Below, piece after piece: positions 3,001 to 56,607 of a DNA stretch of 64,000 nucleotides. Each line of letters starts with the position of its first letter. Positions within the stretch are counted from its first letter, which is position 1. The position numbers and the translations under genes are program-made. This DNA comes from a virus (Duplodnaviria > Caudoviricetes). A model generated the notes under the pieces. The model was not told the origin of the DNA, did no database searches, and saw only the letters and a list, made by a program, of their open reading frames with translations. Location of the stretch: the IMG/VR virus record IMGVR_UViG_3300028888_001547, positions 32,001-96,000 of that record. One strand, written 5' to 3'.

Positions 3001-6000
3001 TATTCTGCTGTTTTAGCGGCGTTTTTAGCAGGAGTTTCTTGTTTTACACCATCACAATACACAAAAGGAGCATAGAATATAGAATCTCCAACACTTGTCA
3101 TCAATTTTTTAGTTCCAATCATCCAAGCAATCAAAGATACATTCTTATTGCTCATATCAGAATTGAATAAATCTGATTTTTTAAACGTAAGATCGTCTAT
3201 ACCTGCTATTTTATATTCCGTAGCTTTTGGATTTTTGATAAAATAATCACGCAACGATTCAAGAATACCCATATCAAGTTGTTCTGTCATAAGCTCCCAC
3301 GGTGTATTCCAGTGAAGATTATTGGCTATTGCAGCAATTACAATTCTTCTTTGAGTTTCATCCAAGAATATGCTATTTTCGCCATTTGATATATCGAATT
3401 CAGTACTTCTTGGTACTCCATTTATATCTTCAAGAGCTATAACAAGAGTGCCTTTTTCTTCGTTTATAAAGAACTGTTTCTTTGCAAAATGTTTAAATTT
3501 CTTTTCTTCTTTTCTTGTAACCCACGTACTCTTACCGTGATTTACAATAAGGCCGTTGCCTTCGTTCTCTTCGTTTCCTATAAGAGCTTCCTTTAATGCA
3601 GAAATATATTTTACAGAAATTCCAGCAAATACACTATCGTCTATTCTATCTGTTATCAAATAAAGAATAAATTCTGCTAACGACGGGACTGTATTTTCTT
3701 TTAACGTACCATCTGTATTAAATGTAAATTCAACGGAACTAGCATCTACATCTTCTGGAGTATCCTTGAATTTGCGTTCAGTTAACTGTATAGCTCTATC
3801 GTTACCGTTTACAGTTTCTGCAATAAAATATATTTTACCGGCTTTACCTCTACCTGCATGAGAATAATCTCCTTGAGAAAATAAATTTAACTTATCAATC
3901 TTCGGTTTAGTAGGCCTTCCGTTTGCGTCAAACGACGAGAAGGCTCGTTCACCGCGACCAACACCAAGACGAACTTCTTCTTTATTTATTTGTTCAGTAA
4001 GTTCTTCTAAATCAGAACTCATACCAAACCCACCGTCCAACAGACTTCTAAATACAGGATCGACACCGTCGTATTTATCGTTTATCTTTCCGTCAGATAT
4101 ACGTGGATTTAATGGACTACCTTGTTTATATTGGGTTGGATCTGCTTTTAATACATAGTTGCCATCTGCATCTTTGTCCAAAAGTGCATCTATAATTTGA
4201 TTTCTGGTATTACGAAGATTTGCAATCTGCGCTTCTATATTTTCATTAGAATGTACACTTCTACCACCAGATAAGAACGATCTTGTTATAAGATCTACTC
4301 TATTTTTAGTTTCTATATCGAGATCCTGATACCATTTATTTACAATAGTCTTTCCTTCATCGTCATATTTCAACGTAGCAGGATCTACACCTATATGATA
4401 TTGCAAATACGCATTTCTTCTAGATATAAAAGTTCCAAAGCTTACGTTTTCTGCATGTATGCCGGTTTCATCTTTTACCACATACTTTTTGCCAGAATAT
4501 TCAAATGAAGACCAGAACATCTAATCCATTTTGTTTCTGATGTCTCTTTCTCCATTCATATCATACCCTTTATACGTAGCGAGACCTGTTAAGAATGTAG
4601 CATATACATCTTCACCGTCTTGTAGTATTAAGGCTACAACAAGGTTATCTGGGTTTTTTACATCTACAACTTTTGTTTTATCTGCAGTTATTACAAAATA
4701 CTTATCTGCTTTATCAAACCACCCTGGAATAATTAATTTCTATGCTAACTCTGCAGGGGATTTTAATTTACCATTATTTTTAAAGATAATTGGAGTTACA
4801 GTATTATCTTCGTTTCTTATTCCAGCAATCCAATCTGGAGTTTTGTCTATTCTTGGATCGTATTTAAATGTTTGTCCAAGAAAATCCGTATATATTTGAT
4901 TTGGAGTAGAAACAAAACGTTCGTTATTTTCAAATACGTTTCCATCTGGGACAGCATCTGTGTTTTGATTTGCCAAATCAATAACAGCATCGGTATTTTC
5001 TCCAGCACTTGATTGTGCTTGATCAGAATCGTCCGTATTCTCTAAGTCTTCGTCATCTACTTCGTCAGTATTTTCTCTTTCTGATGAATCTTGCACACCA
5101 TCTGTATTTTCTTCAAGCATCCCTAATTTTTCTCTTAGTGCACGCTCGTCGTCACTCATTATAGTACGCTTCTTTTCCTTTTTACCATCTACAGCATCAG
5201 TGTTTTCACCTGCAAAATCTTGTATTGCATCTGTATTTTCAGCAGCGTAATCTATTATTTCATCAGTATTTTCTTTATTTGTAGGTTGCTGTTGGGCAGC
5301 GTTTGTGTTTTCTCCTTCAAACTACTGTATTACAGTATCGAAATCTTGATTTTGAACGTTTATGGCATCTGTATTGTTACCATCAGCCTATTCTCTTACT
5401 TCAGAAGGAGATGCTGTTTGCCTAAGATACTCTCTGTGATTTACACGTTTGAGTTCATCATCAAACTGCATTTCATAATCAAACAACAAATCTGCAGCTT
5501 CTTTCTGCATGGATTCAGCATCTACATCCACATTAGACACAGTATCGTCCTAATCCGTATGTTCGTGTAGGTGTTTTGTGTATTGTTCAGATAAATCTCT
5601 TAATTTCTTAAGTTTATCTGCCTGCTATTTATTATATTCAAAAACAATACCTTTATTTGTCAATGGTTTTTTACCATCCTTTTCGCGCTATTCGTTTGTT
5701 TGTTTTAAGAATAAATCTTGCTCTTCTTTTGGAAGTTGTTTCCAACTAAGTTGCGTAACAGATTCTAATGCAACACGAGGATCTATTTTTCCTTTTAATA
5801 TAGCATTCGCTACAGGTTCTATTGAATTGTATACAGATCTATTTAATATCATTCTTCGCTGAATTCTATTAAATTCGTCCTATGCCGGAAGCCTACCGTA
5901 TTGTTTTTCCAGTCGTTTTGCAACGTTCTAAACAAATGGGATTTTTTTCTAACCAGGTTTAGCCTTCTTATTTAATTCAGCAATAGCGTCGTTCATAACT

Positions 6001-9000
6001 TTTGACATGTCATCGTCAAACAGTTTTAACATTTCGCTTTCTGTTTTTTCTATAGATTTTATCATAGAACCGAGTCTTGACGTAGATACATCTATACCCA
6101 ATTCTTTTGATATTTCTTCAAGAAGCGTTTTTCTATCCTTTAATCTCTATAAAAGATCTTCACTGTTCAATACAAACCTACTGCTATACAGATGGTTTAA
6201 ATATTGCTCTACATATTCAAGATATGTATGTTCGTGTTCGGCATCATAATTATCAAGATCTTCTTTCGCTTTACTCAGCTACCAATCCTGCGCATTTTCA
6301 TTCTTTTGCAGACTGTCGTAAATATTCTACAATTTCTTTCTACCTGCAGATCTTCTATTTTTATAATCTTGATAAGAATTCCACATCATTTCCATTAAAG
6401 CGTCATATTCTGGATCCATTGCTTCACCAACTGGATTGTCTAAACGACGCATTATTTCACGATAGGTAGAATTTTTTATTTGATCTAATTCATGATTATC
6501 GTTTTCTATATATCTAGAGGCGTCTCTAAGTTGAGTAAGTTTTCTTGCACTCTATATAATAGCTTGCTTATGTTCTTTAGATCCTACAGATATTTCTTTT
6601 TCTTGTAAATACTTTTTGAATAACGGATGTTCTTGTATATAATACAGATTATTTAAAAGCTCTATGTCACGATCTATGTATTCGTCTGTAACCTAATTTC
6701 CTTTAAACGCTTTTAAATCTTCTACAGATTTTCTTAATCTATCTATAGATATACCGTGTTTTTGCAAAGCATCATAAAATATACCAAGATGCTTATCGTC
6801 CTAAGCTTGCCCATAATGTTCACCGATAAGAATGTCCATTACCTTGTCGTTTTTTATTTGAGCAAATAGGTTTCTAAGATTGTCTTTTCCGTTAGATGGA
6901 AATATATTTGATACTGCTTGAAAAGCGCCACCTCCCATCAACATACCTGTTATGCCACCAATCTGCATAGCTCGTCTAAGCTAATGCGATCCGTTGTCGG
7001 GATCTCCAGGCAACATTCCCATATATGCAGCCACAGCATCTGTTGCCAAATTAGTATCTTCGAGAATAGACGCCATTGGCAATAATGATTGTTCTTGGCT
7101 ATATTGATCATACAATCCTCTAGAATATCTACTTTGAAGTAATTCCTGTTGACCTTCTTCTATAGCCTCCAACGAACCTATATATCCAAGCTTTTTTCCA
7201 ACTCTTGTTAAATATTCTAAACTATGTTTTGCAGCAAGCTTATTTCCTATATTATTTAATCCGGAAGAACCAAGTTTACTTATCGTTCTATCAAACAAAG
7301 TTCTTGCTTGCTGTTGGTATGTCTGATCAGCAAGTTTGTTAACTGTACCTTTTCCAAAAGAACGTAAAAAAGATCCAGAATATCCTAAGAATGGCATTGC
7401 CTCTATATAATCCTTTACAGCAAGTGCCATGTTATCATTGTACACCTTCTTTAGTCCCTGTCTACCAGCTTCTTTTTCTTTTTCAAATACAGAATCTTCT
7501 GTATTTATATCATATGCAAGGGCATGCTAAACAAGATCAATATCTGTCATATTTGTAGGATCGATACCCATATCCTATAGATATTCTTTTGTCTTTTCAA
7601 GAACCTTCGGCATATCAGCGCCGCCTTGCATTGATTTTGTAAGTACTCTGGAAGACCACGCATCAATCACTTCAGAATTAGTTTCATGTTCTCTCATTCT
7701 ATTTATAAAGAACATGTTAGAAGCTGTTGTACCTAGTTTTAAACCTAAATCTGTTGTAGCAATTGCATTATTAGTAGATGATATTATTTTTTGAGCACGT
7801 TCTGCCGCTTTTGCTAATTTAGCGGCTTCTTCAATTTTTCCAGCAGCATTAAGCTTACGTAAATCATTAATAGTAGCGACGGCATTTACATATGGATTTC
7901 TTTTTATAGCAAACGTAGCAAGCCTACGAGCAAGTAATCCTGCTGCGGCATCAGAAGTCATCATTGCTCCCATGTTAACAAAATCACTGTATGACGAACC
8001 TGTTTCTGCAATGGAATATAATAATTGATCTGGTAACAATCCTCCAATTATACCAGCATCATTATTCTCAGAATAATATCTAAACTTCGGATTTATTTTT
8101 TGCGGATCAAAATACCAAGATCCGTTTTTATATTTGTTTGCTGTTTCTTTTTCTGCCTATACGCGCTCATCGTACTCTCTGTTCCAATAATTGCGCATAC
8201 TCTTAACCTTTGTCCTAAGCTCTTGAGTATTTCCTCCGTTTCCATTCAGGTTATCCCTATCGTAATCTTTAAACATTGGATCAGTCCAACGGTCATTCTC
8301 TAAACTATGCCGGATTGCTCGGCGCATATAATTTCCATCGGTACCACTATTAATAAGTCTGTTTATACCTTGCTAAACAGAACCAGCTATGTTTCCTATA
8401 GTGGACGAAAATTCTTCTAATCCTGTAATTGGATTATACCAAGCCCCCAGGTTGTGATCCGGACCAAAGTTTTCTGAAAACGCTTTAAAATACTCTTTAG
8501 ATTTAGCAGAATCTGTATCAAAGAAAAGTTGTGCATTTATGTCATTCTTTTTTCCAGTTGTCTTTATCTTCTCCTGGAAATCTGCAATGTTTTTTTCATT
8601 TTGCAAATATGCATCCTTAGCCTTCATGGCATTCTCTGTATCACCAGACTATATTGCTTTTTGATATTGATCAAGCAAACCAGATCTATTATCGAGCATT
8701 TGAGCGTACTTCTCAGCCTCATCCAAAATATTTAAGCTTTCTTTAGCTTCGTTTATTTGGTTGAGTCTGTTCGTCATTTCTGCTTGTAATCTCTTTTCCT
8801 ACCAAAGTCTATATGCATCTTTCACGCTTGCTGCATCCCAACGTTCTTTGGCGTTTTCATAATTACCAAATAAGAAATGCATAGGACCGGAGAATATAGA
8901 TTCTCCTCCTAACTCTTCTGCAGGAATTATTTTTCCTTCTTCTCCTACAGTAGGATAATATTCGTTTGCAATACCTGTATTAGAAAACGTAGAAACGTTT

Positions 9001-9134
9001 TGTGTTGTATAAGGTAATGCTTCGGAATAAGATGTACTTAAACCATAAGATCTGCGCAAGTTTTCCTCACGCAGATTTCTTCTTATGGCATCTCCCTATT
9101 GATATCTAGGGTTTATTCTGAACCTTTTGTCCAT
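1..9134 (-). CDS. Giant internal virion (cargo) protein, >3040 aa, runs off the window; probably the N-terminal part of the crAss virion RNA polymerase-associated protein; contains a zincin HEAFH motif
   Basis: ATG at 9134 (MDKRFRINPRYQ-TAG-GDAIRR). Eight track ORFs (8799, 8373, 7575, 6981, 4740, 3000, 2646, 948) share one frame and each ends at TAG. A spot check of 5161-5760 found no in-frame TAA/TGA. Motifs EAIEEGQQ and HYHEAFH...EELLAD (2292-2306). Position follows cargo and muzzle genes as in Crassvirales. No RNAP catalytic motif was identified in the window. Confidence 0.75.
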
Positions 9135-9139
9135 AATCG

Positions 9140-11365
9140 TTATTGTAACATTTGAATAGCTAATTCTTCCAGGGTCATATCATCAATATAACTCTGATTT
9201 TCAGAGTTTATTATGTTTTTATCTGCGACACCCGCATTGAATTCAATAATATCAGAGAGAGCATTTATATCTCTAAAGTTCTAACCACCAAGATTTTCTA
9301 TAGTTCTTATAACAGGTACTTCGTAGTATGTATCAGAGCTATGTAGTTCATTATTTTTATCTCTATATGTAATCTTTTGGTCAACAGGTAATAGTCCTAA
9401 TTCTTTACACAAACTGTCAATATCTTTATATTTCTGTTTATCTGTATAACTTAAAGAATTGTAGAACTGTTGTATTTGGCTTCTAGTCATTAGTGGATGA
9501 GACAATATGTCGAGTTGTTTACCAACTCTAGTTGTACTTGGTATACCTGCAGCTTTTACGTCATTTTCATCTATAGAAATAGCCGTACGTCCTTGTAAGA
9601 ATCTATCAAACTTACTATGTATATCATTATGCTTAAATCTAGCATTACCAGATATACCAAGCTATCTTACTGGAGCATAATGATACCCACTACCAAATCG
9701 TACGTTGTAATATCCATTAGAAAGATCTGGATCTTTTATAGTATTATCAGCACCTACAAATTGTTGATGTAATACTTTATTTTGTATAGAACCAAGACCT
9801 TCTGCAGAAAATCCATCCCAGAAATCAGAAGCACGCTTCTTTGCATCTTTAACACTCATTTGGCCTCGTTTACCACCAGATGTACTCCATTCTGGAGAAC
9901 TAGACTTTGCCTTCATTATCATTTTCTGCATATCTTCCTGTTGGTAATTCTGCAAGAATGCTATTTCTTCTGGTGTCGCTTTGTCTCCTTTTTTGATTAT
10001 ATCTCGTATAACATGCACAACATATTTGCCATCTTCCGTTTTTCTAGTATCATATCTGCTTGGATAATAATTTCCGTGGTAGAAATTAGACCACCTACTC
10101 TTTTCGTATTGATATACATTATACGAAGAGTTCTGAGATTGATCATAAACGTTTTCCTTACCTTTTTCTGTTGTATGTACAGTCTTTGCGATACCTACAG
10201 AAGGACTTACACCGTACGGAGAAGGGGTTACGATTCCCTTTGCAACTTGTTTTTCAACATCTTTTTGTCCAACAACCTTTCCACGGTTCTCTACACTCTT
10301 TGCCATTTTATCCCAATAATCAATAATTGTGGCAAATGTATTACCAACAGATTCTCTACCAATTTGTTTTTGTTCAAAGTTTGCATTCATGTTCCTGTTT
10401 AATCTATCCATGAATGTAGTAGGAGCTTCAGTAGGATTATTCGGGTTTGTTTGTGCACTTCTACGTAGAGCAGCTATTTGCCTTGCTTGTTGATTTTTAA
10501 GTTCTTGTAAGTACAATTGATTTACAGATCTAGTAGGATTAATAAGATACTCCAAATTTGCTACAGCAACGTCTTTCTATAACTACTTTTCTATCTAATC
10601 TGCAGTAGGATTATCTATACCAGCCGCACTCAATTTATTCTTTGCCAACTATCTATAATAATCTGCATATATACTACCATTCCAGCCGGGAGTTTGTCCA
10701 GAAGCAATGTCAAGAAGATCTTTTGTAGTAAATCCTAAATAGTCGTATCTTGGATCATACTGCATTCCAAACGATTCAACTCCAGCTTTATCCAACATGT
10801 GAGCTGTTCTGTTATTATACCAAGATTCTGTAAGCTCTTTAAGCGTTTTTACTTCTGCTGGAGATGTTCTATCCCATATTCCATTTCCTAGAGTACTCCA
10901 ATTATCCAATGATCTCCCTTGATTAGCAAAATTCTCAAAATTAGGATCCCACTTACCAGTTGCTTCAAGAATGCCTCTGTTTTTTATATATTCTTTAGCG
11001 TTCTCAGCGCTTGTTCTGAGTTTAGCAACTTTACCAACATCAATACTATTGATCATCTGTGCAATAGCAGCACGGCCTTCAGCAGATCTAGTTAAATCGA
11101 TACCTTTAGAATACGCGTCATTAATGAAATTCCTAATTCTACCTGTAACATTGTTGTTATACCACTCTTGATCAGCAAGAATAGGAGTAATAAAATCACC
11201 GTACTCCTTCTTGAATTCCTTCATATCTTGAAGTCCTTGCTGATAATCCGCATAAACAGCATTAAAGTATTTGTCCTAAGCATCTAGGACCATTTTAGCC
11301 ATTGTTGGATCGAATATTTGCTGTCCTGTATATTCGATCGGCCTTTCATATCCTAAAAATGCCAT
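9140..11365 (-). CDS. Internal virion cargo protein (~741 aa, TAG read-through)
   Basis: ATG 11365 (MAFLGYERP). ORFs 10649, 9662 and 9281 are in frame; TAA at 9140. Synteny with crAss cargo genes. Confidence 0.7.
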
Positions 11366-11367
11366 AA

Positions 11368-13464
11368 TTATTTAAAATTTGAATTAAATGTATACGGTTG
11401 ATATGTATCATACCAAGGTATATAACTTGGAGTACTATAACGCATCAATGACGACGGAATATTATATTGCAAAGATGGTTGGTACAAAGAATTAGAAAAC
11501 ATCCGTGGAAGCGACGTATTTAATCTTGGAGCAATATATGGAGATGTTCCAATAGATGCTGTCGCTTTTGTAGATGGTGTTACAGCAGTTGGTGTATTGT
11601 TTCCGTTAAGCCAATTATTTAACCACTACTATTCAATATTTGTTTTTTTATCAATTAATTCCAACTCTTTTTCTTTAAACTTCTACGCCTACTTAAATTG
11701 ACTATAATCCATTTGATCTTTTACAAGATATGGTAAAGGTGCAAATCTATTCTTCCAATTATATGTATCTTTTAAATCCTTTGCACCAACAGCTCTTGCA
11801 TATCTATTAAGCTGATCAGTAGCAGTTTGTATACGCATATCTTCCGCATGAGCGTCAGTATTAGCTAATAGTTTTCTAGCAGTTTCTCTTCTTACTCTAT
11901 TGTGTTCGTCTATATTGAGTAGCTGCTTCATTTTTTCATTCAATCCGGTACGATCTGCAGAATCCATCAAAACAGCTCTTCCGCCCATACCGATACCAGG
12001 CATACGGCTAATTGCATATTTGTTTCTAGCAACTTCGTCGTCTATCATATTCATGTAAGGTCTAGAAGGAATCATGTCGCCTAATATAGCGTATGCCTAA
12101 TTTCTTGCAGAAGAATAATCCGGTGTTACGAGTGGTGCTTCTGCTGGACGATTTATATCCTTATTGTACTGTTGTGTGGCAGCTAGCATCTATGCTATGT
12201 TTGGCATAGCCATGAATGCTCTATCCCACCAGCCATCTTTAAGTCTAGGAAGTTTTCCGCATTTATATCCTTTTCCGTTTTTATATTTCATTTGCATATC
12301 ATTCATTGCTTCAAGCGCCACGGATTCATTTCCGCCATTTTTAATATAATCTGAAATTCCGCCTTTGTTTGTCCATACAATAGATCGCGGATCACTTATC
12401 ATTTCTCCAAGTAGCGTTCCTTTTCTTGCTACGTATTCGTCCTTATTATTCTTTTTACCTGGTACTTCTACCTTAAGTCCTCCTAGCTGTACAACTTCTC
12501 CTCCAGATAATCTAGCAACGCCTTTACCGCGCGAATATCCAGGGAGTTTTCCATTAGCCGCACCAAGACTACCAGATTTAGTTCTACCATAAAAACCCTA
12601 TTGTGCGTCTTTACTTTTAGCAATGGATTCTGACATACGTCCCTCCATTGTTGTAGCATCGGTAACATCTTGAGCAGCTTGCCTTGTTTCTTCTTCTGTA
12701 TCTCCGAATCCAGCAAGATATGCCAATCCTCCAAGAAGTGCTCCTGCTCCTGCTCCAATGGCTGTTCCTACTACTGGAAAAGAACTTCCGGCTGCCATTC
12801 CTGCCAATGCTCCAGCAGACATACCCGTTCCAATAGAAGACGCTGTAAAATTAAGGTTTCGGCTTGCACGCTAAGCTCTCGCATATTTGAGCTCATTTCC
12901 TAGATTTACACCACCATATTTAGTATACTGATTACCTAAGTCTGTTGTGTATATATTTTTAGTCAATGTATCGCGCATCTAACCAGCACTTCTATGGTCT
13001 TTGTTTGCAGCAAATTGCATACCCATATCAGCAAGACCATATGCTGTGCCTATACCAGCAGTAATACCTCCTAAAGAATTTAATCCAACTTTACTTGCTG
13101 CCTGTCCAACCCCTTTTTGTCCAATTGAATTTATATTTCTTATTACGTTAGAAACATCTCTTACTCCACTTGATGCCAAAGACGCTCCAAATCCAGAAGC
13201 CGCAGTATTCACAGCAGCATTTGCAGCTGGTACAAAACTCTTTAAATTTTTTAAAGTTTCTAAAGCAAACGATGAATTTATTTGAAGCTTATTTAGTGCA
13301 CTAGGAATAGTATTCTATCTAGTTGTCTATATCTCAGGATACAGATTCTATCCAGGTGTACTGCTCATCTATTGTCCTCCAATCCCGTAGTTGGGTTGGT
13401 AGCCTAAACTAGTAGGCATTCTTGTTCCCAGCCAATATCTGGGCAATTTATTTTTTCTTTTCAT
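11368..13464 (-). CDS. Internal virion cargo protein (C1-like) with Gly/Ala-rich hydrophobic segments (~698 aa)
   Basis: ATG 13464 (MKRKNKLPRYWLG). ORFs 12979, 12598, 12190 and 11689 are in frame; TAA at 11368. Contains GTAIGAGAGALLGGLAYL (membrane-insertion-like) and SGGEVV. Directly follows the muzzle gene. Confidence 0.7.
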
Positions 13465-13465
13465 A

Positions 13466-16400
13466 TCAACTATAAGATTGTCTGAATTTAGTTATTATGT
13501 GTGATATAGTAAGGAATTCTGTTGGATTTGTACTCTTTATATTTACTCTTAGCCATTTACCGCGTATTCTGTTTCCATAACCATCTCCTGTGATATATCT
13601 AGGTATATTATATATCACATTACCTTCCCTATCAGTATACGGTTCCATATTGCCGCTGAACTCTTTATTTATAATATCGCTTTCAAACGACATTACCGCT
13701 CCTTCTAAGAATGCACTATGATCTACTTGTGTGAAAGCATCTCGTTTAATTGGAATAAACTGCTGAGAATCAAATACTTTTGTTACAGATGCCATTGGGT
13801 TTACAATAAAACTAACAGCCAATGGATATAAATACGAAGTAGCTTGTTCTAGATAGTTATGCTTTTTTATATCAAGTTTTTGATGTTCGTTGTCTACAGT
13901 CAAACCATACAGGTGATTCTTTATATATAACATAAAATCATAACGTCTTGTATATATAGAAGTACCGATATTATACTTTATGTTTAGCACCATCTAGTCC
14001 TAACCTAAACATTTACACAACACTTCGTCGTTTTGTAAATCGTAATCTACATGCGGAACATCTGCCGTTATGTATCGATTTACTAAGTTTTGAATATTTA
14101 GTTGTTCTCCTACATTTATTGCCCTACTTTCTGCAAGTGCCGCAATAGCTTTATTATTTATATCTACCCAGAACACTCCTCCTTCAGTTGTTCTAGCGCA
14201 GAAATCATAAAGACGCATTCCATATCTCGTACTTATATAATCATAACGTGACAATATGCCTGCCTGTCCCAACATTATAGTGTTGCTGTTCTGATCATTC
14301 ACAAGAGAACGTTCATTAACGCTGAACCGTCCGCATGCGTGATCTTGCCAGTAATACAACATGTTCTTATCTGTGAGTAGGTTTGTTATTTGTCCGTATT
14401 TACTATCTACATCAATAAAAGATGCTGCTTTGAATATAAGGAAGTTATCTATAAACTCACCATTTGTCTTCAAATCAGAGTAATAAGTACGCTACTTAAA
14501 ACTATTTGTTTCGTTTTTGTCTGTGCTTATTAATGTAAACACATCATTAGAAGCGTCGTTATCAGAATATATCATGTTATACTGATGAACAGGGCGGTCT
14601 TGTGTAGTAACGCCATCTATTTGCCCAGGTTCATATAACAGATTTTCGCTTTGTGTGTTCATAAGATTCATTCCATAATCAAAATAAGTATTTACTTTTG
14701 ATTCAAGAGGAATGTAATTTACAACCTACGTGGACTGGAGTGTATCCATAGAGTTAAAATCATATGCTTTATACATAGTTCCCAACTCATGCGGAGTAAT
14801 ATAAACATCTCCATCAAATACAGTTAGTGTTGTATTATCTTTTGGCGTACCATTTGCATTATACGATACATTGAAATAGTTTCCAAACCCGTAATATTGA
14901 GTAAATTCATCAGATTGAACATCACTTGTCTTTGCTTCGTGAGTTATATTGCATATAGAAGTATAGAAGGCACTAGAATTCAATGGGAATAAACCGGTTT
15001 CGTTCTCAGTAGTAAGTAAGAAACAAGATGGTCCCGCACCTATATATCCTATTTTTACAGCCTGATTATCTTGTGTCATTGGATATACAGCAGCTTGCAA
15101 CCAGTTTCTATATCTTTTTGTTCTACCGTGCATCTCTGCTGAATTTGGACCATCCCCGTCACTTGTAGTATAGTCCATATTAGCCTGACTTTCTTCTCCA
15201 GGCCTTAAATCATATTTTGCGAATGAGACCCAATTGTTGTACACATAGGAGTCAATATTTGTAGTAAAACTCTTATATTTCTTTATGGCTGTATATATAT
15301 CTTCATCTTCGTTTCGTTGTACTTCACTAAATGCTGAACTCCATTCAGGTATCTTTACATCTTTTATTTGATTTACGTCCTATGTACCAAAACCAGAGAA
15401 CGATCCACCATTTGTTTTATAGAAGTTAAATATCCAATGTCTTGCCTATTTTTTGTCAGACGAAAGCTTTTCTACATAAAGTCTATTTATTCCTATTGTA
15501 CCTTCTTGCGAATCATAATCAACAGGAGGTATTCTAGTGTTTACTGTTAATACTGTAGGCTAATATTGAAGATCTACTTTAATTACTATAGATCTATTTA
15601 ACGTTGCCGCTTCGTTTATAAAATCGGTTACATTAGAATGTGATATTATGTTGTCAGAAATGCTCATGACAGGACCAGCTACTAAACTATCTGGCTCAAG
15701 TCTCATAAATTGCACGTCTGTTACGTTTGGATCGTCTACACTAAGTAGTATACTTTGAGCAGATGTACTCAATGGGCCAACTGCGAACATGTTTCCTTTA
15801 CCCTAAACAACTCCAACATTATATGTTCTTGTCGTTTCTTCTGGAGTATAATACGAAGAATTTGCACTTGCTGTCATTGAGTTTGGAAGTGCTCCGTCAT
15901 ATATAGTATCTTTTGTGCTGTTTGTATATTTAGCAAAAACAGAAGATACGTACAGCATTTCTTCTATATTTGTATCAGACGTATTTACTCTGGACAGAAC
16001 ATCATTTCTTCTAAAGTCTATTTCAGATGAAAAAATCTAATATAATTTGTGGTTTCGAGTTCTCGCTCTAAGATCTGCATAATATCCAAGGTCCTGGCCA
16101 TTTGGTGCAGATACCGTTTTACTATAATAATACGACGGAAAAATATACAACCCGTTAACAGACATAAATCCGCTAGGATAGAAAGGAGATTTTTTTGTTA
16201 CACTATCCTATGCATCAGATATTTCTTGTATATTTGTATCAAGTATTGCTTGTGATATTGGTCTAGCTAAAGCAACCTATAGTAATGTTTTTTGATATAC
16301 TTCTGAAGAAGATCTACGAATAACCTAGCAACCTACAATACTACTTATAGCATCTGGATCACCAGTAAGCGTCGGAAGTTGTATTTTTACTCCAATAGGA

Positions 16401-17836
16401 TGGGCCAATAATTTTCCATTTACACATTCAAAAGGACGTGATGTGTTATAATCAGAAATCGCTTTTTCATCTAGACTTATTACATCTGTTCGTCTTCCTT
16501 TATTGTCATAAAATACTAATGCGTATTTATACTTCTCTCCGCGTCGTAAAGATCTTAAGAGACTAGAAGTAATCATATCATTGTAGGAAGCTTTTACAAT
16601 CTAAGGATTTACTCCACGTTCTGTTAAATAACTCAATACGGAAGAACCATCGGAGAAAGTACTATATTCATCTTTATAATAGTGTTTCCCGGGATCAGGT
16701 ATATCTCCATCTATTTTATCTGATAATACAACAGTTGCTGTTATTTCACTTATTGACCCAGCTGTACCAAGGCTTACGTTTTTCAGTATTGTATCGTCTG
16801 TAACATTTCCACAAAACATATATTCCTAGTTCTGTTCTATTGTTTGTGGAATAAGTATAAGACCGGACATTGCGGCAAACTCCTCCATTGAAAGTTTTTG
16901 CAGAGGGTCTATACCAATATCGTTTAATACAAAAGAATTGTTTTGGCTTTTTATATCTCCATCGTATATCAAAGATACTTCTGCATCATGTCCGGGTGTT
17001 ATATAAGATAGTCTATATACTTGTATTTTTTTATATCTGCTAGAATACCCGGTCATATCTATCGACAACGATAATCCAACGGACGTTTCTGTGTTTTCAG
17101 CATTACCTGTCTCTTTTGATCTAGACGAATCAATAACCTATATCTTATTAGTTAGAGGAGCTAATTGAGTGGTATTACCATATTTATTGTAATATCTATA
17201 TGTGTACTATACCTACTATGTTGTAAGTCTTCCAGATATAATATCTGTTATAACCACCCTCTTGTCTGGTATCTCTCTATTATTTATAAGACTATCAATA
17301 GGTACAGGAGTTCCGTTCGTTATATAAGGATGATCCTGTTCATCGTCAACTCTTAAACTTATAATAGGGTCTTTACCAGTAGCTATGTATAGTTTTATTA
17401 CGTTTTCAAGCTCTTTATATAATACAGCTGATATCTTCCCTGGAGCATTTCCTTCCCATACACCGTTTGCAAACCAAACCTACTTAAATTCACTGCATTC
17501 ATTGTTAACTTCGTCAACAGTAAATTTCCATACGTGTAAGTCGCTATCATTTGTAGTAACAACAATAGCTAACTGATCTACAGAACATACTGCAATTATT
17601 CGTTGATTGTTTGATATAGTACCGAGAGAATCTATACTGACGCCACTGGGTACAGGAGTAACAATTCCTTCGTGCACAGAAGAATAGTCACCAGAACTAC
17701 CAAGGAGCTGATTCTTAGTAATTCTAATGTTCTGACCATATATGTATTGCGCGTTGTCTATTTGGTCAAATGCGGTGTCAGAATTCATTCCCTTCGTAAA
17801 CGAGTTTATATAGGAATTGTTCTCATTAGTAACCAT
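13466..17836 (-). CDS. Tail muzzle / stabilisation protein (~1456 aa)
   Basis: N-terminus NSFTKGMNSD and C-terminal RIRGKWL are typical of the crAss muzzle family. Eight track ORFs lie in one frame; TGA at 13466. Confidence 0.8.
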
Positions 17837-18782
17837 AATAGTAGTCGTTATAAGTTAATTGTTCTTTTCCAATATTCTTAAAGAATGTATCATCTCCATC
17901 CCAATCAGGGATAAGCTTATTCCAATCATTCTTTATATTCTGCATATCATCAGGCGTTGGCATCATACATTCAGCATATGCCTGATTTCTATAAAAGTTC
18001 CACTGTTGCTGTGTATAATAGTATGTCTGCTGTGCATACTTCTATGCATATTTAGAACTACTAGTAGTAAGCTTACCACTCATAAACTTAGGGAACGTAA
18101 GCTTCATTACAACATACCAGTAAACTGCTTCCTAGAATGAAGGGAGGTCTGGAATAAGAGGATAACCTCTCTCATCTACTGCTATAGCTTTATATGAAAG
18201 CCGTATGAATCCGTGTCTCTTATTTGTTACAATCCAACCAGGTTTAATGAAATACTCAGGTTTATCTAAGTGATTTGGCAACCATTTGTTTGCATACCTC
18301 ATTCCATTATACATGTATAGTTGATGCTATGAAGTAGGTAACTTGTACATCATAGGCTGGTGTGGAGGTGGTGGCATTGGCATAGGATCTGGTACAATAG
18401 CAGGTTCCTGTATTGCCAAGTTAGCCGGATCGTGCATAACAGTAGCTGTGGGATGCGGGTGTGGATGAGGATGTTGCTTAGACTTAAATATCCTTGTCAT
18501 TGTACTCATCGGCTACCAGTGCACTCCATCTTTACTATATGCTACACCATCCAGAGACACTAAATCTTCTGGGATAGGAACCTAATAGTCTTGTATCTTT
18601 AGAATAGGTAAATCATCTGTCCCAGATTCTCTTGTGATATACTACATAGGAGCACCAATCTTTTCCACGGCTTCAAAAATCCACTCTCGTATATCTGTAG
18701 TACGCTGTTTCGCTTCTGTGGAATCCAAATCAGCCATGATTTTTGCTATGACTGATTCACACTTTGTATATTTGTATATCAT
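17826..18782 (-). CDS. Tail ring (tubular) protein with His/Pro-rich insertion (~318 aa)
   Basis: ATG 18782 (MIYKYTKCESVIAKIMADLD). Motif YKAIAVDERGYPLIPD. TAA at 17826 overlaps the muzzle start. Confidence 0.75.
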
Positions 18783-19200
18783 TTATATCTATATAATCGT
18801 GTTTATTAAATATTAGTTGAGCTAATCTGCGTTTATTCTATCTTACTAAACATAACTGATATTTGTATCTATCAGGGAATGTTCTAGGTATCTTAGACCA
18901 GTATAGTCTATATTTATACCCATTAGAATGTTCATTCAAATGATAGATACGTTTATCATATTCTTTACTCGCTTTATAGTCCACAGATAACGAATCTGGA
19001 GTAAGCGTCTTGGGTCTATATTTACCCACCTAAATAAAACCTAGCCCATAAGGCATTTTAAAGCCGTCTGAGCGCTCTAACACGTATTCTAGAATAACTT
19101 TACACATCTCGTCTAAAATGCGCTTGTAGAGGCTGTAATCAACCTCTACGGGCATTGTACGATACATGTCTCTAAACGTTAGCGATTGTTTACTTCTCAT
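18757..19200 (-). CDS. Conserved crAss IHF/HU-like protein of the tail module (~147 aa)
   Basis: ATG 19200; two TAG read-throughs; FKMPYGLGFIQVGK...HLNEHSNGYKYRLYW; TGA at 18757. Confidence 0.6.
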
Positions 19201-19933
19201 CTTCCTTTGGTCCGTCAGGCTTTATACCGTCCAGCGTAGAGTTGTTATCATCATCGCTAGGTCTATTGAGCATAAATGCAAGCTCATTGTTCATTATAAG
19301 CTTTTTGATATCGGGAACCATCCATGTAGGAATCTGTATATCATCCTCGTCTGGATCTTCCACGCTATCTTCGTCTGCGTCATCTTCCGGCTTCTCATAT
19401 ACAGCTAGAACGTAGATATAATCAAGGAGTCCTTGATCCTGTAAACCTTGTACATATACATGCTTATCGTCCATATAATAGGCGGTCAGTTCCCCAAACG
19501 TATACTTGCGGAAGTACTGATAGTGTCTACGAATATGATTCATATACTAAATATTCTCGCCGGCCTCATCGTGCACAGCAAGAATACTAGTCCATTTGTT
19601 TCCGTATATGTTTTCTAGAGTATCTTCGGTTTTTTTGGTAAACAAGTTTCTACCTTTATCCTCAGATTCTACAGGTATAAGCTTATGCTTAGTCTCCTTC
19701 AAAAATAAGAATTCACCGTCTATTAGATCGGTAATATCCATTCCAGCCTACTCCTTAGCTTCAACCTCATCCAGGTGTTTCTTCCACAGCATCCTGCGAT
19801 AATGATCAATCCAGGCTGCTATGTGTGCTCTTGAGAAGTCCTCGCTTTCGCTTATATTACTATTTCTAGCTATGAGAAGTATATCATCAATAATCTCTCT
19901 AAGAGATGTTTTCTATGGTGAAATCTTGCTCAT
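19190..19933 (-). CDS. Tail ring protein (~247 aa)
   Basis: ATG 19933; SLREIIDDILLIARNSNISESEDFSR. ORFs 19547 and 19190 are in frame. Confidence 0.65.
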
Positions 19934-19934
19934 T

Positions 19935-20600
19935 TTATTTTGTTGTTGATTCAACTATTCTTATGTTATTGCTCTTAAGTAGCTCATTAGTATTATAGTT
20001 AACATACTTACGTTTTTCTACTTTCTTCCAATCCCATGTGAATAGTCTCTTTATGAAGTTCTTTTTGTTCTTATACTCTTTAGTAGTATAGATATATAAA
20101 TACTGCTCATTCTGTATATCTAAGCCTATATTTACAGTATCTCTACCAATAGTATAGTAGACGGTAGTAAGATCATTATACTTTAAAGAATCAGTATAAG
20201 TAGTATCTTTTAGTATAGTTACTAAGTCACCCCCTACCCCCTTACTATCATTAACGTTTAAAACCTGAGATTGCGTTGCAGCAGTTAAAATAGATTTTGA
20301 TTTAAGTTTTAACTTATTTCTTATACTATCTAACTTATGTAACGTAATATCGTTTTGTCTCTCTAATTCTTTTATGTCTAGCCTTAAAACATTATTAGCC
20401 TACTAGGAGCTATCTAATAACCCCTAATAGGCTTCAATGTTGTTCTGAGCCATTTCTAGCTCCTGTGACAGCTTTATATTGCTTCTGTGGGTATTTATAC
20501 CCCACAACAGTAAAAACGCAACAGAAGCCACGCAAATGCCCTTAACGGCCATCTTCCAGTGGTTCTTCAGCCACAGGAGTGTCGTTAGTATGTTCATCAT
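19935..20600 (-). CDS. Putative Rz/i-spanin-like membrane protein (~221 aa), absent from the ORF track
   Basis: Manual translation gives an N-terminal TM segment (GICVASVAFLLLWGI), then a coiled coil (ELEMAQNNIEAY). Three TAGs, including TAG-TAG. Directly downstream of the holin. Confidence 0.6.
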
Positions 20601-39611: not shown

Positions 39612-41720
39612 TTATCCAAGAACAATAGGGAATTCTGCGGGGAACTATGATGTTTCTGGATCTCCCCACAAGAAGTATATTGTATTATCGTCAGGTTCAT
39701 TTAAAGCAAGATATTCGCTCTACTGCATGAATGCGTGATTATATCTATTAGATGATATCGGTGCCATTACGTTACCGTATATAAACGCTGTATATGTTAC
39801 AGATGTTGGAAGAGTCGTCTATATTGGAGTACACCACACGTTTCTAAGTACAAGATCTCCGAACGTAGCTTCCTCATAATACTGCATATTGTTTCCATAA
39901 ATAACGCCAGTCTCATCGTTTTCCCATGTGAATGAGATATGAGTTACTTTCTTTGCGTTGGTTTCATCCATAGAAACGTATGCCAAATATAAAGGTTCTT
40001 CTATAGAACCAGCAGCTACTACAGTCATGTTTCCGTGTATAGAAGATACTTGTCCTTGTATTTGATCTACAATATCATCTATCTCAGATTTAGTATATGA
40101 ATCGACAGTTTCAGCGTTTCCGTTTCTTACTTGGAATTGTGCTGTTCTATCATCATCCAGGGTTACAGTAAGAACGTTTATTCCTCCATTATCAGTAGAG
40201 GTAGTAGTCTGTACTACGCTCTTTATACCAATACCGTCGTCACCTTTATCGCCCTTGTCGCCCTTATCACCTTTGTCTCCAGTATCGCCTTTGTCGCCTT
40301 TAGGGCCTTGTTCACCTTTTGGGCCCTATGCACCATCTGCACCTCTGTCGCCTTTATCACCTTTAGGTCCTTGGATACCTTGGATACCTTGAATACCTTG
40401 ATCACCCTTATCACCTTTAGGTCCCTGAGCACCATCGGCACCTGTATCACCCTTATCTCCTTTATCGCCTTTATCACCTTTGATTCCTGCAGCACCGCTA
40501 AGTGTAGATATGTAATTAAAGCCACTGCTTGTCTTCATATACAATTTTCCATTATCTGTATATGAAGGATCGCTATTCGATATGATTACAAATTTATTTT
40601 CTGCAACGTTACCTGCATCGTCATTCATATCAGAAATAGACGAGTAGCTCTTATATATCGAGAATGGATCACCGGTATCTCCCTTAGGTCCTTGAGCTCC
40701 AGTAGGTCCTGCGGGACCCTATATTCCTTGTAAGCCTCGTTCACCCTAAATACCTTGTTCACCTTGAGGTCCCTACGCACCGGTAGCGCCAGTATCACCT
40801 TTTGGACCCTGAGCACCAGTTGCTCCTTGGACACCTTGTAAACCTTGTGATCCGGTATCTCCTTTAGGTCCTTTTGCAACTACACCAGTAGATGTATAAG
40901 ATGTTCCACCATTAGTAGATACTTCCCATTCAAGGGTTGTTGGGTTTATTCTAATAAGAGGTGTTGTACCATCGTTTCCACGAGCTTTAACTTGAGTATC
41001 GGTACTTCCAACAAACCAGTTGCCGTTCATTCCGATAGTTGGAGAAACGCCATCAGTACCATTATCTCCTTTAGGACCTTTTAAGGCAGCTAGTTGCTGT
41101 GGTGTAAAATCTTCATATGTAAAATCATGACCAGATTGTCCTTCAGCACCCTATGCTCTTACTCCAGTATCTGTATCGCCTATAAACCAATGTCCGGATT
41201 GGGAATCAATATGCGGAGTTACACCATCTTGACCATCTGCACCGTCTGTACCATCACGACCAGGAGCACCTTGTTCACCCTATTCACCAGTAAGACCGCG
41301 CTCTCCAGGTTCTCCTTTGGGACCTTTAAGCGCTTCTAACTATTCTTCTGTGAAATCTTCGTACGTAAAAGGATCTCCAGTCTCTCCCTGCTCACCTTTT
41401 TCGCCAGTTTCTCCTTTATCACCTTTATCTCCTTTGTCACCCTTTTCTCCCTTAAGGCCAGCTTCGCTAATTGCCTTAGCAATCATTGTTGCAATCTCTT
41501 CAGAATCTATATTAGAATCATCAGAGTTACAGCATCTTCCTTTGTTTTGAAGTACAAGGTTGAGCGTAGCATTAGCATCAAGTATATCGCCTTCTTTAAA
41601 TGCAGGGTGACTAGGCGGATAATTACCGATGAGCACATTTGGATGCATATCTCTTCTGGCAGATGTGCCAAACTATGCAAGATCCTTAAGTGCTTGTTTT
41701 TTCTTTATACCTAATATCAT
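39612..41720 (-). CDS. Collagen-like fibre protein (~702 aa)
   Basis: Gly-X-Y tracts (GDK, GAQGPK) and FTYEDFT motifs. TAG falls at positions that are Gln in neighbouring repeats. Confidence 0.8.
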
Positions 41721-45306: not shown

Positions 45307-45409
45307 CGCGTGGTGACGGAATCGAACCGCCAACAGGTGCCTCCTTCACTTGCCGCCACAACGCGTTTGCAAGCACTTGTCTCCCGCTTTACCATTAAGC
45401 TAACCACGC
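45307..45409 (-). ncRNA. tRNA-like RNA with canonical acceptor, D and T arms but an enlarged, non-canonical anticodon region
   Basis: GCGTGGT/ACCACGC acceptor; GCTT-AATGGTA-AAGC D arm; GGCGG-TTCGATT-CCGTC T arm; ~54-nt middle region. Confidence 0.7.
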
Positions 45410-54732: not shown

Positions 54733-54892
54733 AATATATAAATAACGTTATTTGTATATACGCCAATAGGGGGCCTTGAGGGTCCCCTATCAACTGATTT
54801 ACTAAATTTTAGAAATATGAAGTTATTTAAAACTTCGTTTGTGAGGTTTTGCCATCTGATGTACGCCACCCCATGAAGCTTTTATTACGTAA

Positions 54893-55450
54893 TTATTGTG
54901 CTTCTTCAGAATCGTTTATCGATTCCACCGCTGCCTCGTTTGCGGGCTCAGAGTTTGTAGTCTCGACTTCTGTTTCCGGAAGACTCTGAGTAGCCGTAGG
55001 TGCGCTTTCGTTTATATTGTCAGTAGACCCATAACCGCCTTCTCCACGGTCAGTCTCACTGAGTGTATCACTCTCCTCAAACTGTACATCAGGTACTGGG
55101 AGTATAAGGAGTTGACAAAATCTTTCACCTTCTTTATATATAGCAGGTACAACATCTGTTGTAGCTCGCATCTTGGCCATTACTTCACCACGATAATCAG
55201 AATCAATTACACCAATACAATTAGTAAGTATAAGAGATTTCTTTGAGATAGATGAACGAGGAACAAGAGCTCCAAAATAACCTTGAGGAATCTCTACTGC
55301 AATATCAGTATGATATACAAGGACAAGCTGTCCACACTCGTTAATCTCTGTTGTGATTCGTGTACATGTCAAATCGAATCCAGCATCTGTGGCATGTGCC
55401 TTTACAGGTGCGATTGCATTTTCTGAAAGTCTTTTAAATTTAATTACCAT
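54893..55450 (-). CDS. dut: Trimeric dUTPase with acidic C-terminal extension
   Basis: AGFDL, PRSS, GVIDSDYRG and RGEGGYGST motifs. Start placed at 55450 because the longer track ORF overlaps the tRNA. Confidence 0.92.
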   Translation of the reverse strand: MVIKFKRLSENAIAPVKAHATDAGFDLTCTRITTEINECGQLVLVYHTDIAVEIPQGYFGALVPRSSISKKSLILTNCIGVIDSDYRGEVMAKMRATTDVVPAIYKEGERFCQLLILPVPDVQFEESDTLSETDRGEGGYGSTDNINESAPTATQSLPETEVETTNSEPANEAAVESINDSEEAQ

Positions 55451-55474
55451 CTTTATATATAATTTTAGTAATAA

Positions 55475-55551
55475 TGGTTGCCCAGTCCGGTTCATCTCCA
55501 GATCTTCCGGGGTTAGAGCCCGACGTGCTAGGAATCATACACCACTAAGCA
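55475..55551 (-). tRNA. Amber suppressor tRNA (anticodon CTA), probably Gln-accepting
   Basis: TGCTTAG/CTGGGCA acceptor with a T1-A72 pair; TCGGG-CT[CTA]AC-CCCGG anticodon arm; encoded CCA; atypical D and T loops. Confidence 0.85.
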
Positions 55552-55552
55552 G

Positions 55553-55598
55553 TACCTACCGGGGGTAACGCTCCCCCGCATTGGGTCTAACCGTAGGT
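55553..55598 (-). ncRNA. Mini tRNA-like element (acceptor stem plus T-arm-like hairpin)
   Basis: ACCTAC/GTAGGT stem enclosing GGGGG-AGCGTTA-CCCCC; abuts the suppressor 5' end. Confidence 0.5.
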
Positions 55599-55624
55599 TG
55601 CCAATCAACATTTTAACTATGAAT

Positions 55625-55675
55625 ATACAGGGTTCCGGATGGCCATCCGAATCTCAGCCTCCCCTGTATCGGCTG
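55625..55675 (-). ncRNA. Pseudoknotted RNA element
   Basis: CAGCC/GGCTG crossed by TACAGGG/CCCTGTA, with an inserted TTCGGAT-GGCC-ATCCGGA hairpin. Confidence 0.5.
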
Positions 55676-55682
55676 TGTTATG

Positions 55683-55743
55683 CGGCTCTGGGAAGATTCG
55701 AACTTCCTGCACGCCCGCCGGACAACCGACATATCGCAGCGCC
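55683..55743 (-). ncRNA. Shrunken tRNA-like element (61 nt)
   Basis: Perfect T arm GGAAG-TTCGAAT-CTTCC; acceptor GGCGCTG/CAGAGCC (one mismatch); only 29 nt in place of the D, anticodon and variable regions. Confidence 0.55.
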
Positions 55744-55772
55744 TTCCAGTATAACGTAACGGTTATACTCGT

Positions 55773-56114
55773 TTACTTGTTCTTCTTGAAAGGATGTTTG
55801 ATCCAACCCCAGAAGCGCTTGTACCAAGGCTTCTTCTTTTTGCCTGTAGCTTCCTTAAGAATATTCTCAAGCTTATTGAACAACTTATCATCCTGAATAC
55901 GAACAATATTCTTCTCGCACTCTTCATCAATCTCATTGAGAATATCACCTGTAATTTTAACTCCAAGCATCACAAGCCAGGTAATATCATCTTCTGTAAT
56001 TGCCACGCCTTGTGTAGCCTTTGCTCTAATAAACTCGAACTTTATGTCGTCACAATTTCCAACATTAGTAAGATCTACAATAAAAGCGGGCTTTGTTTTA
56101 ATATTCTTCTTCAT
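55773..56114 (-). CDS. Hypothetical protein with amphipathic basic C-terminus
   Basis: 113 aa; ends KKKPWYKRFWGWIKHPFKKNK. Confidence 0.65.
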   Translation of the reverse strand: MKKNIKTKPAFIVDLTNVGNCDDIKFEFIRAKATQGVAITEDDITWLVMLGVKITGDILNEIDEECEKNIVRIQDDKLFNKLENILKEATGKKKKPWYKRFWGWIKHPFKKNK

Positions 56115-56130
56115 AATTCTATATATCTGA

Positions 56131-56607
56131 TTATGCTTTCTTAACTTTCTTAACAGCTTTCTTGGCCTTAGTCAAGACCTTGGAAATCTTTTCACAAACA
56201 GTCTCCTTTGGAGGTTCTGGATCGCACACGTTTGGACACGCATCGCACGAACGTTCGCAATCGCAACATTTACACTCGTTTTCTGCTTGTTTAGCAGCCC
56301 ACTCTTCCTTTTCCTTCTGCTCAATAGCTCTACGGTTCTTAATGTTAGCAGTCCACTGCTTTGTTCTAACTGTATCGAGATGATACTTATTAAATCGATT
56401 TGAGTAGAACAGAAGAAGGATGTCGCCCTTCTTAGCGTCGATCTCTTCCTTGCACTCACCGCAATTGTATACAATGTGCATAGGCTCTTCTATGTAGTAT
56501 ATCGAACGAATATCGTAACGGTCCTCCTGTGGGAGTGTGCATACGAAATCAGTATCTGGATCTACAACAATGTTTGCTGAGCTGTCTGTTAAATATAAAG
56601 TCTTCAT
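56131..56607 (-). CDS. Hypothetical protein with Cys cluster
   Basis: 158 aa; CKCCDCERSCDACPNVC. Confidence 0.65.
   Translation of the reverse strand: MKTLYLTDSSANIVVDPDTDFVCTLPQEDRYDIRSIYYIEEPMHIVYNCGECKEEIDAKKGDILLLFYSNRFNKYHLDTVRTKQWTANIKNRRAIEQKEKEEWAAKQAENECKCCDCERSCDACPNVCDPEPPKETVCEKISKVLTKAKKAVKKVKKA

Follow-up and report, generated by a model that had tools for sequence, protein, structure and literature searches.

A phage tRNA(CUA) without the canonical elbow motifs is conserved in relatives of a TAG-recoded crAss-like phage and probably acts as a glutamine-inserting amber suppressor

We analyzed a tRNA(CUA) gene of 77 nt, including CCA, which is located on the minus strand of a phage genome at positions 55475-55551 and which lacks both sequence motifs of the canonical tRNA elbow. 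We consider it very probable that this gene encodes a genuine, functional amber suppressor inserting Gln. Direct reading of the sequence, the uniqueness of the locus as the sole CTA cloverleaf with 21/21 pairs in the genome and covariation in homologs underlie the assignment. The initial annotation had proposed an amber-suppressor tRNA with a non-canonical elbow, and this proposal is supported by the reading, by the conserved structure and by the TAG-recoded genome. The window, i.e. the whole stretch of 64,000 nt that was analyzed and to which all positions refer unless genome positions are indicated, covers bases 32001-96000 of a virus record that has 106,598 bp and is rated complete. The closest dUTPases to the product of the neighboring gene belong to Crassvirales, family Suoliviridae, and the public runs in which the stretch occurs come from the gut of cattle and sheep; the source is a rumen crAss-like (Suoliviridae-like) phage. 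Four ruminant-gut metatranscriptomes among the 24 public runs were checked at 55300-55900; they contained assembled contigs of relatives, none of which extends over the tRNA, and have no bearing on expression.

Read from 55551 to 55475 on the minus strand, the RNA starts with the acceptor strand UGCUUAG (55545-55551), whose partner is CUGGGCA (55479-55485) and whose first pair is U1-A72. It is followed by U8 and G9, a D stem GUGU/GCAC closing the D loop AUGAUUCCUA of 10 nt (55529-55538), a single G, an anticodon stem UCGGG/CCCGG with the loop CUCUAAC (55512-55518), the 4-nt variable loop AAGA and a T stem UCUGG/CCGGA (55498-55502 with 55486-55490), which closes the 7-nt T loop AGAUGAA (55491-55497). 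The 3' acceptor strand is followed by the discriminator A (55478) and the encoded CCA (55475-55477). All 21 pairs of the 7, 4, 5 and 5 bp stems are standard; the acceptor and T stems together contain three G.U pairs, and the anticodon stem contains one U.G. The features named in the initial annotation (cloverleaf, CTA anticodon, T1-A72, CCA, no GG and no TTC) are all present, and its coordinates are right. The 7-nt anticodon loop C-U-CUA-A-C, with the anticodon CUA at 55514-55516, has U33 and a purine at position 37. U8 and, within the D arm, A14 and A21 are present as core tertiary positions, and the Levitt pair 15-48 occurs in swapped form as U15-A48. G18G19 is missing from the D loop and U54-psi55-C56 from the T loop, where a U54/A58 pair is impossible. 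Judged from these positions, the elbow alone is changed and the rest of the core is kept. The z-scores of the fold (-0.22 for the tRNA and -0.45 for a 306-nt region) are both uninformative; since the fold energy is unremarkable, the case for tRNA(CUA) rests on context and comparison and not on thermodynamics.

The suspicion that such a tRNA would escape tRNA finders was borne out. In default mode ARAGORN reported no tRNA anywhere in the window, and the Rfam tRNA model RF00005 gave no match at the locus, even at E<=10. In its metazoan-mitochondrial mode ARAGORN makes 37 calls in the genome, most of them spurious, and one of them is this tRNA, labeled 'Pyl cta'. Applied to the tRNA(CUA) family described below, ARAGORN detected all 34 members whose T loop is canonical or of the A19-U56 type, but none of the 29 non-canonical members. 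The further consequences proposed in the initial annotation, i.e. altered modification, altered recognition by RNase P or the synthetase and evasion of host defences, would be conjecture.

The genome surrounding this gene is recoded. Under code 11 the longest ORF comprises 506 aa, compared with 3059 aa if TAG is treated as a sense codon. ORFs of at least 150 aa contain 287 in-frame TAGs, nearly all of which are located in a minus-strand block at genome positions 20034-86747; about 250 in-frame TAGs belong to the late-gene block, and the plus-strand early genes (568-19961) contain none. In tblastn alignments to relatives the residue most often found opposite TAG was Gln. A likelihood comparison at 42 positions also identified Gln as best, 23 log-likelihood units above the runner-up Glu, and in collagen-like fibre repeats GIQG alternates with GI(TAG)G. 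TAG in the late-gene block is therefore best read as Gln. The tRNA(CUA) gene shares the strand of the recoded block and is located at its upstream end. Downstream, 22 nt separate the end of the tRNA from the start codon of a dUTPase gene (54893-55453, minus strand; Pfam PF00692, E 3e-24), which has no in-frame TAG and served as syntenic anchor.

According to the initial annotation, a canonical suppressor elsewhere in the genome would mark the present locus as a pseudogene. Using Rfam, ARAGORN including the intron setting, and a relaxed cloverleaf scan, we found no second CUA tRNA in the 106.6-kb genome. The tRNAs identified in the whole genome by Rfam and by ARAGORN, with introns also allowed, were Gln(UUG), Gln(CUG), Glu(UUC), Met(CAU) and a number of odd tRNA-like elements. 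The relaxed scan accepted any NU-CUA-RN loop in the 106.6-kb genome, with five shuffled genomes as control. It returned the present locus as the sole solution with 21/21 pairs, and the shuffled genomes gave 0 perfect solutions; four other matches with 18-19 pairs correspond to the rate in the shuffled genomes (3-7 each). The unique 21/21-pair CTA cloverleaf and its conservation with covariation in relatives argue that tRNA(CUA) is not a chance structure. Among the tRNAs that Rfam detects in five relatives which are 92-100% complete and carry non-canonical versions of the tRNA, there is no further CUA tRNA, and the loci of these relatives are likewise TAG-recoded. Genes for a CCA-adding enzyme, GlnRS/GluRS or PylRS were not found in the phage genome. 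A very divergent second suppressor or a mechanism supplied by the host may be conceivable.

The corresponding loci of relatives were fetched via the dUTPase, and additionally three viral and one metagenome pattern scans were performed. In relatives a tRNA(CUA) occupies the same spot directly upstream of the dUTPase gene. About 60 distinct cloverleaf tRNA(CUA) sequences were gathered, which have the D stem and the anticodon loop in common; the loop CUCUAAC is identical in nearly all of them. The majority is canonical, with D loops of the AAUGGUUA type and UUCGAAU as T loop, and L014 reaches 49 bits in Rfam. In L045, L143 and L180:1398-1471 (RefSeq crAssphage cr272_1, NC_055903) G19-C56 is replaced by A19-U56, with the D loop AAUGAAA or AACGAUA and the T loop UUUGAAU; the depositors of NC_055903 annotated the gene at this locus as tRNA-Gln. 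This exchange is a tertiary covariation of the textbook kind and may have been a first step on the way to the non-canonical elbows. A further class whose T stem contains an additional base (L010, L011, L032, L034, L035 and others; CCGGG-UUCGAYU-CGRUGG, with a 50-64 covariation) keeps the D-loop GG and the T-loop UUCGA, so that the T stem alone is odd, whereas the type found in the window is without both motifs. The tRNA(CUA) at L052:3825-3900 (minus strand) combines a GG/UUCGAAU elbow with a 12-nt D loop starting with AUG and the swapped U15-A48; it may be intermediate between the canonical and the non-canonical groups. Neither GG nor UUC is present in 29 distinct family sequences, which comprise at least five loop types, all undetected by ARAGORN. 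The loop pair AUGAUUCCUA and AGAUGAA of the window tRNA occurs in 11 distinct sequences from 23 contigs. Both loops are invariant in these 11 sequences, which have 8 different acceptor, 7 anticodon and 3 T stems.

Covariation was analyzed in an alignment of seven members that belong to the window loop type or to one of the two types closest to it. All 147 of 147 cloverleaf cells were paired across the seven homologs, and 10 of the 21 pairs had changed on both sides, among them 6 of the 7 acceptor pairs. The first pair of the T stem covaries as U-A/A-U/C-G/G-C. None of 500 shuffles reached any of the measures, and slid partners were paired to only 35-50%. Because of the complete pairing, the changes on both sides and the failing controls, we regard the RNA as kept by selection for the cloverleaf and not as a decaying pseudogene. 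U8, A14 and A21 are invariant. The Levitt position 15-48 is A-U in the canonical members, U-A in 27 of 27 members of the group containing the window tRNA, and G-C once. As far as the sequences show, the canonical elbow contacts are impossible in this tRNA, and whatever replaces them constrains both loops completely.

In the explanation that we favor, tRNA(CUA) would be the phage's own amber suppressor, most likely charged with Gln by the glutaminyl-tRNA synthetase of the host. Situated where the TAG-recoded module begins, it would be the only tRNA reading the approximately 250 UAG codons of the structural and late genes and, as the sole reader of UAG, would allow translation of the recoded late genes only after it has been made. 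It would descend from an ordinary tRNA(CUA) of the tRNA-Gln-like kind, which related crAss-like phages carry at this locus. From this ancestor the cloverleaf, the anticodon loop and the core contacts (U8-A14-A21; 15-48 as U-A) would have been kept, and G18-psi55, G19-C56 and U54-A58 would have been replaced by another loop pair under strong purifying selection. This explanation would imply that the tRNA is expressed and processed, that it receives Gln and serves the ribosome in decoding, that its D and T loops still touch, and that the encoded CCA frees it from a CCA-adding enzyme which measures the elbow.

Glutamine identity involves a weak 1-72 pair, G10 and U35 and, in the case of the E. 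coli GlnRS, additionally G2-C71, G3-C70 and G73; the rules of the host GlnRS may differ. U1-A72, G10, U35 and G2-C71 are present in tRNA(CUA), position 3-70 is C-G, and the discriminator is A; positions 2-71 and 3-70 vary within the window loop type. Due to C3-G70 and the variability of both positions, the proposed charging with Gln rests on codon usage and descent and not on identity elements. The standard T-loop motif is contacted by the ribosome (L1 stalk and L5), by RNase P and by several modification enzymes. Since AGAUGAA cannot form this motif, function of tRNA(CUA) on the bacterial ribosome is an assumption.

The absence of the near-universal elbow motifs could also be taken to indicate that the locus is a tRNA pseudogene in decay or that it encodes a tRNA-like RNA acting outside translation, for example as a decoy for a host nuclease or as a processing or regulatory element, with UAG being decoded in another way. 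The genome indeed contains several other tRNA-like elements without a normal anticodon arm, and tRNA mimicry for other purposes therefore seems to occur in such phages. A pseudogene would, however, not retain 21/21 pairs by compensation together with CUCUAAC, CCA and loops that are invariant in 11 copies. Moreover, a UAG decoder is needed, and neither this phage nor the five 92-100% complete relatives offer another candidate, so that we judge decay or mimicry to be improbable. The CUA anticodon and the loss of both elbow motifs are also reminiscent of a pyrrolysine-type tRNA (tRNAPyl), although the 'Pyl' label of the mitochondrial ARAGORN mode derives purely from the anticodon. The architecture differs from tRNAPyl in having two nucleotides instead of one between the acceptor and D stems, an anticodon stem of 5 bp instead of 6 bp, a variable loop of 4 nt instead of 3 nt and a D loop of 10 nt instead of about 5 nt. 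In addition, TIGR02367 (PylS) is unmatched in the complete phage genome, the TAG positions align with Gln, and the window tRNA is homologous to canonical tRNA-Gln-like suppressors. Taking these points together, the probability of a tRNAPyl is close to negligible.

Within the favored explanation, i.e. a Gln-inserting suppressor of the phage, the nature of the contact between the two loops has to be considered separately. The 3' part of the D loop, rich in pyrimidines, could form a short Watson-Crick helix (a loop-loop kiss) with the purine-rich T loop, and this helix would replace G18-psi55 and G19-C56 and hold the L shape. The covariation of D and T loops among homologs, which the initial annotation had suggested as a check, was found in a sister class but not in the class of the window tRNA. 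The sister class has a 6-nt T loop NGNNAA (AGCGAA, AGCAAA, AGUGAA and CGUGAA) and a D loop ending in ...NNCUA. Here the register T1-4 : D(-2..-5) pairs in 23 of 24 cells, compared with 19 of 24 cells at most in other registers; in the predicted helix of 4 bp, one position varies between C-G, U-A and U.G and the adjacent one between G.U, A-U and G-C. Three independent non-canonical lineages have loops complementary over 4-5 bp (UACCU/AGGUG in L013, CUUA/UAAG in L016, UGCC/GGCA in L039). If only Watson-Crick pairs were counted in 6 lineages, the own D and T loops outscored mismatched partners except in 6 of 265 derangements, but the test became weak (18 of 265) when G.U was allowed. The invariance of the window-type loops in 11 diverged copies would also agree with such a contact. 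In contrast, the best helix between the window tRNA's own loops comprises 3 bp (UUC/GAA), which shuffled loops reach in 73% of the cases, and the class with the 7-nt T loop has no consistent register (at most 7 of 12 cells). The 'compensatory, inverted elbow' first proposed for this tRNA thus finds no backing in its own loops, where the complementarity is at chance level. Since only a few, related variants are available and the choice of registers was in part post hoc, a Watson-Crick loop-loop elbow is rated as possible but doubtful for the window tRNA.

Directly abutting the 5' end of tRNA(CUA), a structured leader is located at 55552-55600 (minus strand), for which RNAalifold with 8 relatives revealed compensatory changes in 8 of 13 pairs. 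It comprises a stem resembling an acceptor stem (ACCUAC/GUAGGU), a small hairpin and a hairpin resembling a T arm (GGGGG-AGCGUUA-CCCCC), after which 'AC' precedes U1; the leader ends one or two nucleotides ahead of U1, and in some relatives its loop is the canonical UUCGAUU. We considered a model of the RNase Z type, in which a cut after the discriminator of the leader makes the 5' end of the tRNA. This model fits some relatives (...UAUAGGAG-C, then the cut and U) and is speculation, because it does not fit those relatives whose leader helix ends flush with U1. Of the non-canonical members, 28 of 29 encode CCA, compared with 14 of 31 canonical members, counted as distinct sequences and ignoring kinship. 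This excess would fit a tRNA that is unable to rely on an elbow-measuring CCA-adding enzyme. A far-reaching and, in our view, rather unlikely reading is that these phages carry a second conserved elbow solution which works on the ordinary bacterial translation machinery, with the leader and CCA replacing elbow-dependent steps of maturation. A short Watson-Crick loop-loop helix or another fixed contact would then have taken the place of G18-psi55/G19-C56/U54-A58, and the tRNA-like leader and the CCA would stand in for the positioning of RNase P and for CCA addition, respectively.

Suppressor tRNAs with the anticodon CTA (Sup-CTA) are known from TAG-recoded (code 15) crAss-like and other gut phages, but a suppressor was detected in only about 40-52% of the TAG-recoded phages; the authors of these surveys suspect non-canonical tRNAs in the remainder but present no example (Borges et al., preprint 10.1101/2021.08.26.457843; Kienbeck et al. 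2024, PMC10879173; Cook et al. 2024, PMC11210395). The window tRNA is homologous to the Sup-CTA tRNAs and resembles them as a phage tRNA(CUA) with late genes in which TAG corresponds to Gln, in its locus, its D stem and its anticodon arm. The published members have canonical elbows, as they were found with tools of the tRNAscan-SE type, whereas the window tRNA does not and hence was missed. In a literature search that was not exhaustive we found no published suppressor tRNA with this anatomy. A precedent for a UAG reader without the standard elbow is tRNAPyl, a natural amber decoder without G18, G19 and T-psi-C that functions on the ribosomes of bacteria and archaea (Krahn, Fischer and Soll 2020, PMC7609411); it is not homologous to the window tRNA and differs in architecture, synthetase and amino acid. 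Type II mitochondrial tRNAs have kept the cloverleaf, but G18G19 and T-psi-C are unconserved and the canonical D-loop/T-loop interaction is lost (PMC7609411). These tRNAs have co-evolved with the mitochondrial ribosome, processing enzymes and synthetases, whereas the window tRNA would need the unmodified machinery of a bacterial host.

Judged by sequence and conservation, the window tRNA is a concrete, conserved and traceable example of the 'missing' suppressors in recoded phages and represents a new structural variant. It would be a tRNA of a bacterial system that dispenses with the G18G19/T-psi-C elbow and keeps the rest of the core. The non-canonical family with its five or more loop types could seed a dedicated covariance model. 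The intermediates with A19-U56 or irregular T stems at the same locus in sister phages provide a natural series on the role of the elbow, which could address RNase P, CCA addition, modification and transit through the ribosome. Non-canonical suppressor tRNAs are also candidate scaffolds for orthogonal suppressors. If a second elbow solution indeed existed, many of the TAG-recoded phages with 'no suppressor tRNA' (roughly half) would carry hidden tRNAs.

Several structured elements were observed further upstream of the tRNA. A tRNA-like element of 61 nt is located at 55683-55743 (minus strand) and is conserved in L014. Its acceptor stem of 7 bp contains one G.A mismatch, a hairpin of 5 bp with a loop of 4 nt takes the place of the D and anticodon arms, and the T arm GGAAG-UUCGAAU-CUUCC is canonical. 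The T arm at 55691-55707 and tRNA(CUA) were considered as halves of a split, permuted or intron-containing tRNA; this was rejected because each element is separately conserved in relatives. The spacer following the element (55616-55682) is structured and pseudoknot-capable. Theta (HDV-like) ribozymes follow phage tRNAs; a search of 54800-56600 with Rfam at E<=10 yielded only chance matches (RT-6, SmY and others) and no ribozyme family. Many tRNA(CUA) genes, canonical or not, are preceded at a distance of 2-6 nt by a hairpin (L041, L042, L093, L133, L142, L146, L190 and others) with a recurring loop motif close to GUC(G)UUAAAAGA, which is a candidate promoter, terminator or processing signal.

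The odd tRNA-like elements of the genome (window 45307-45409; genome 16018-16095, 16492-16568 and 105531-105611) were inspected for a hidden CUA anticodon, and none of them has one. The element at 45307-45409 (minus strand) is the only Rfam tRNA match of the window (43.8 bits). Its acceptor, D and T arms are normal, and 47 nt replace the 15-nt anticodon region, so that the anticodon loop is unrecognisable; the ARAGORN reading as 'Val(aac) with intron' is unconvincing. Outside the window, ARAGORN called a permuted tmRNA at genome positions 105039-105420 (plus strand; L001:794-1175) with the tag peptide GDMNIVDYTGLKEAA, without support by Rfam. Also outside the window, in the tRNA-like elements at genome positions 16018-16095 (plus strand; L007:1502-1579) and 16492-16568 (plus strand; L008), the anticodon arm has given way to a stem of 8 bp and a loop of 5 nt, or to a stem of 7 bp and a loop of 10 nt; the L007 element is conserved in the genome of a relative (L153). 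Among the recoded genes, a collagen-like (Gly-X-Y) protein of 702 aa, presumably a fibre, is encoded at 39612-41720 (minus strand); it contains 11 in-frame TAGs, several of which fall in repeats that read Q elsewhere.
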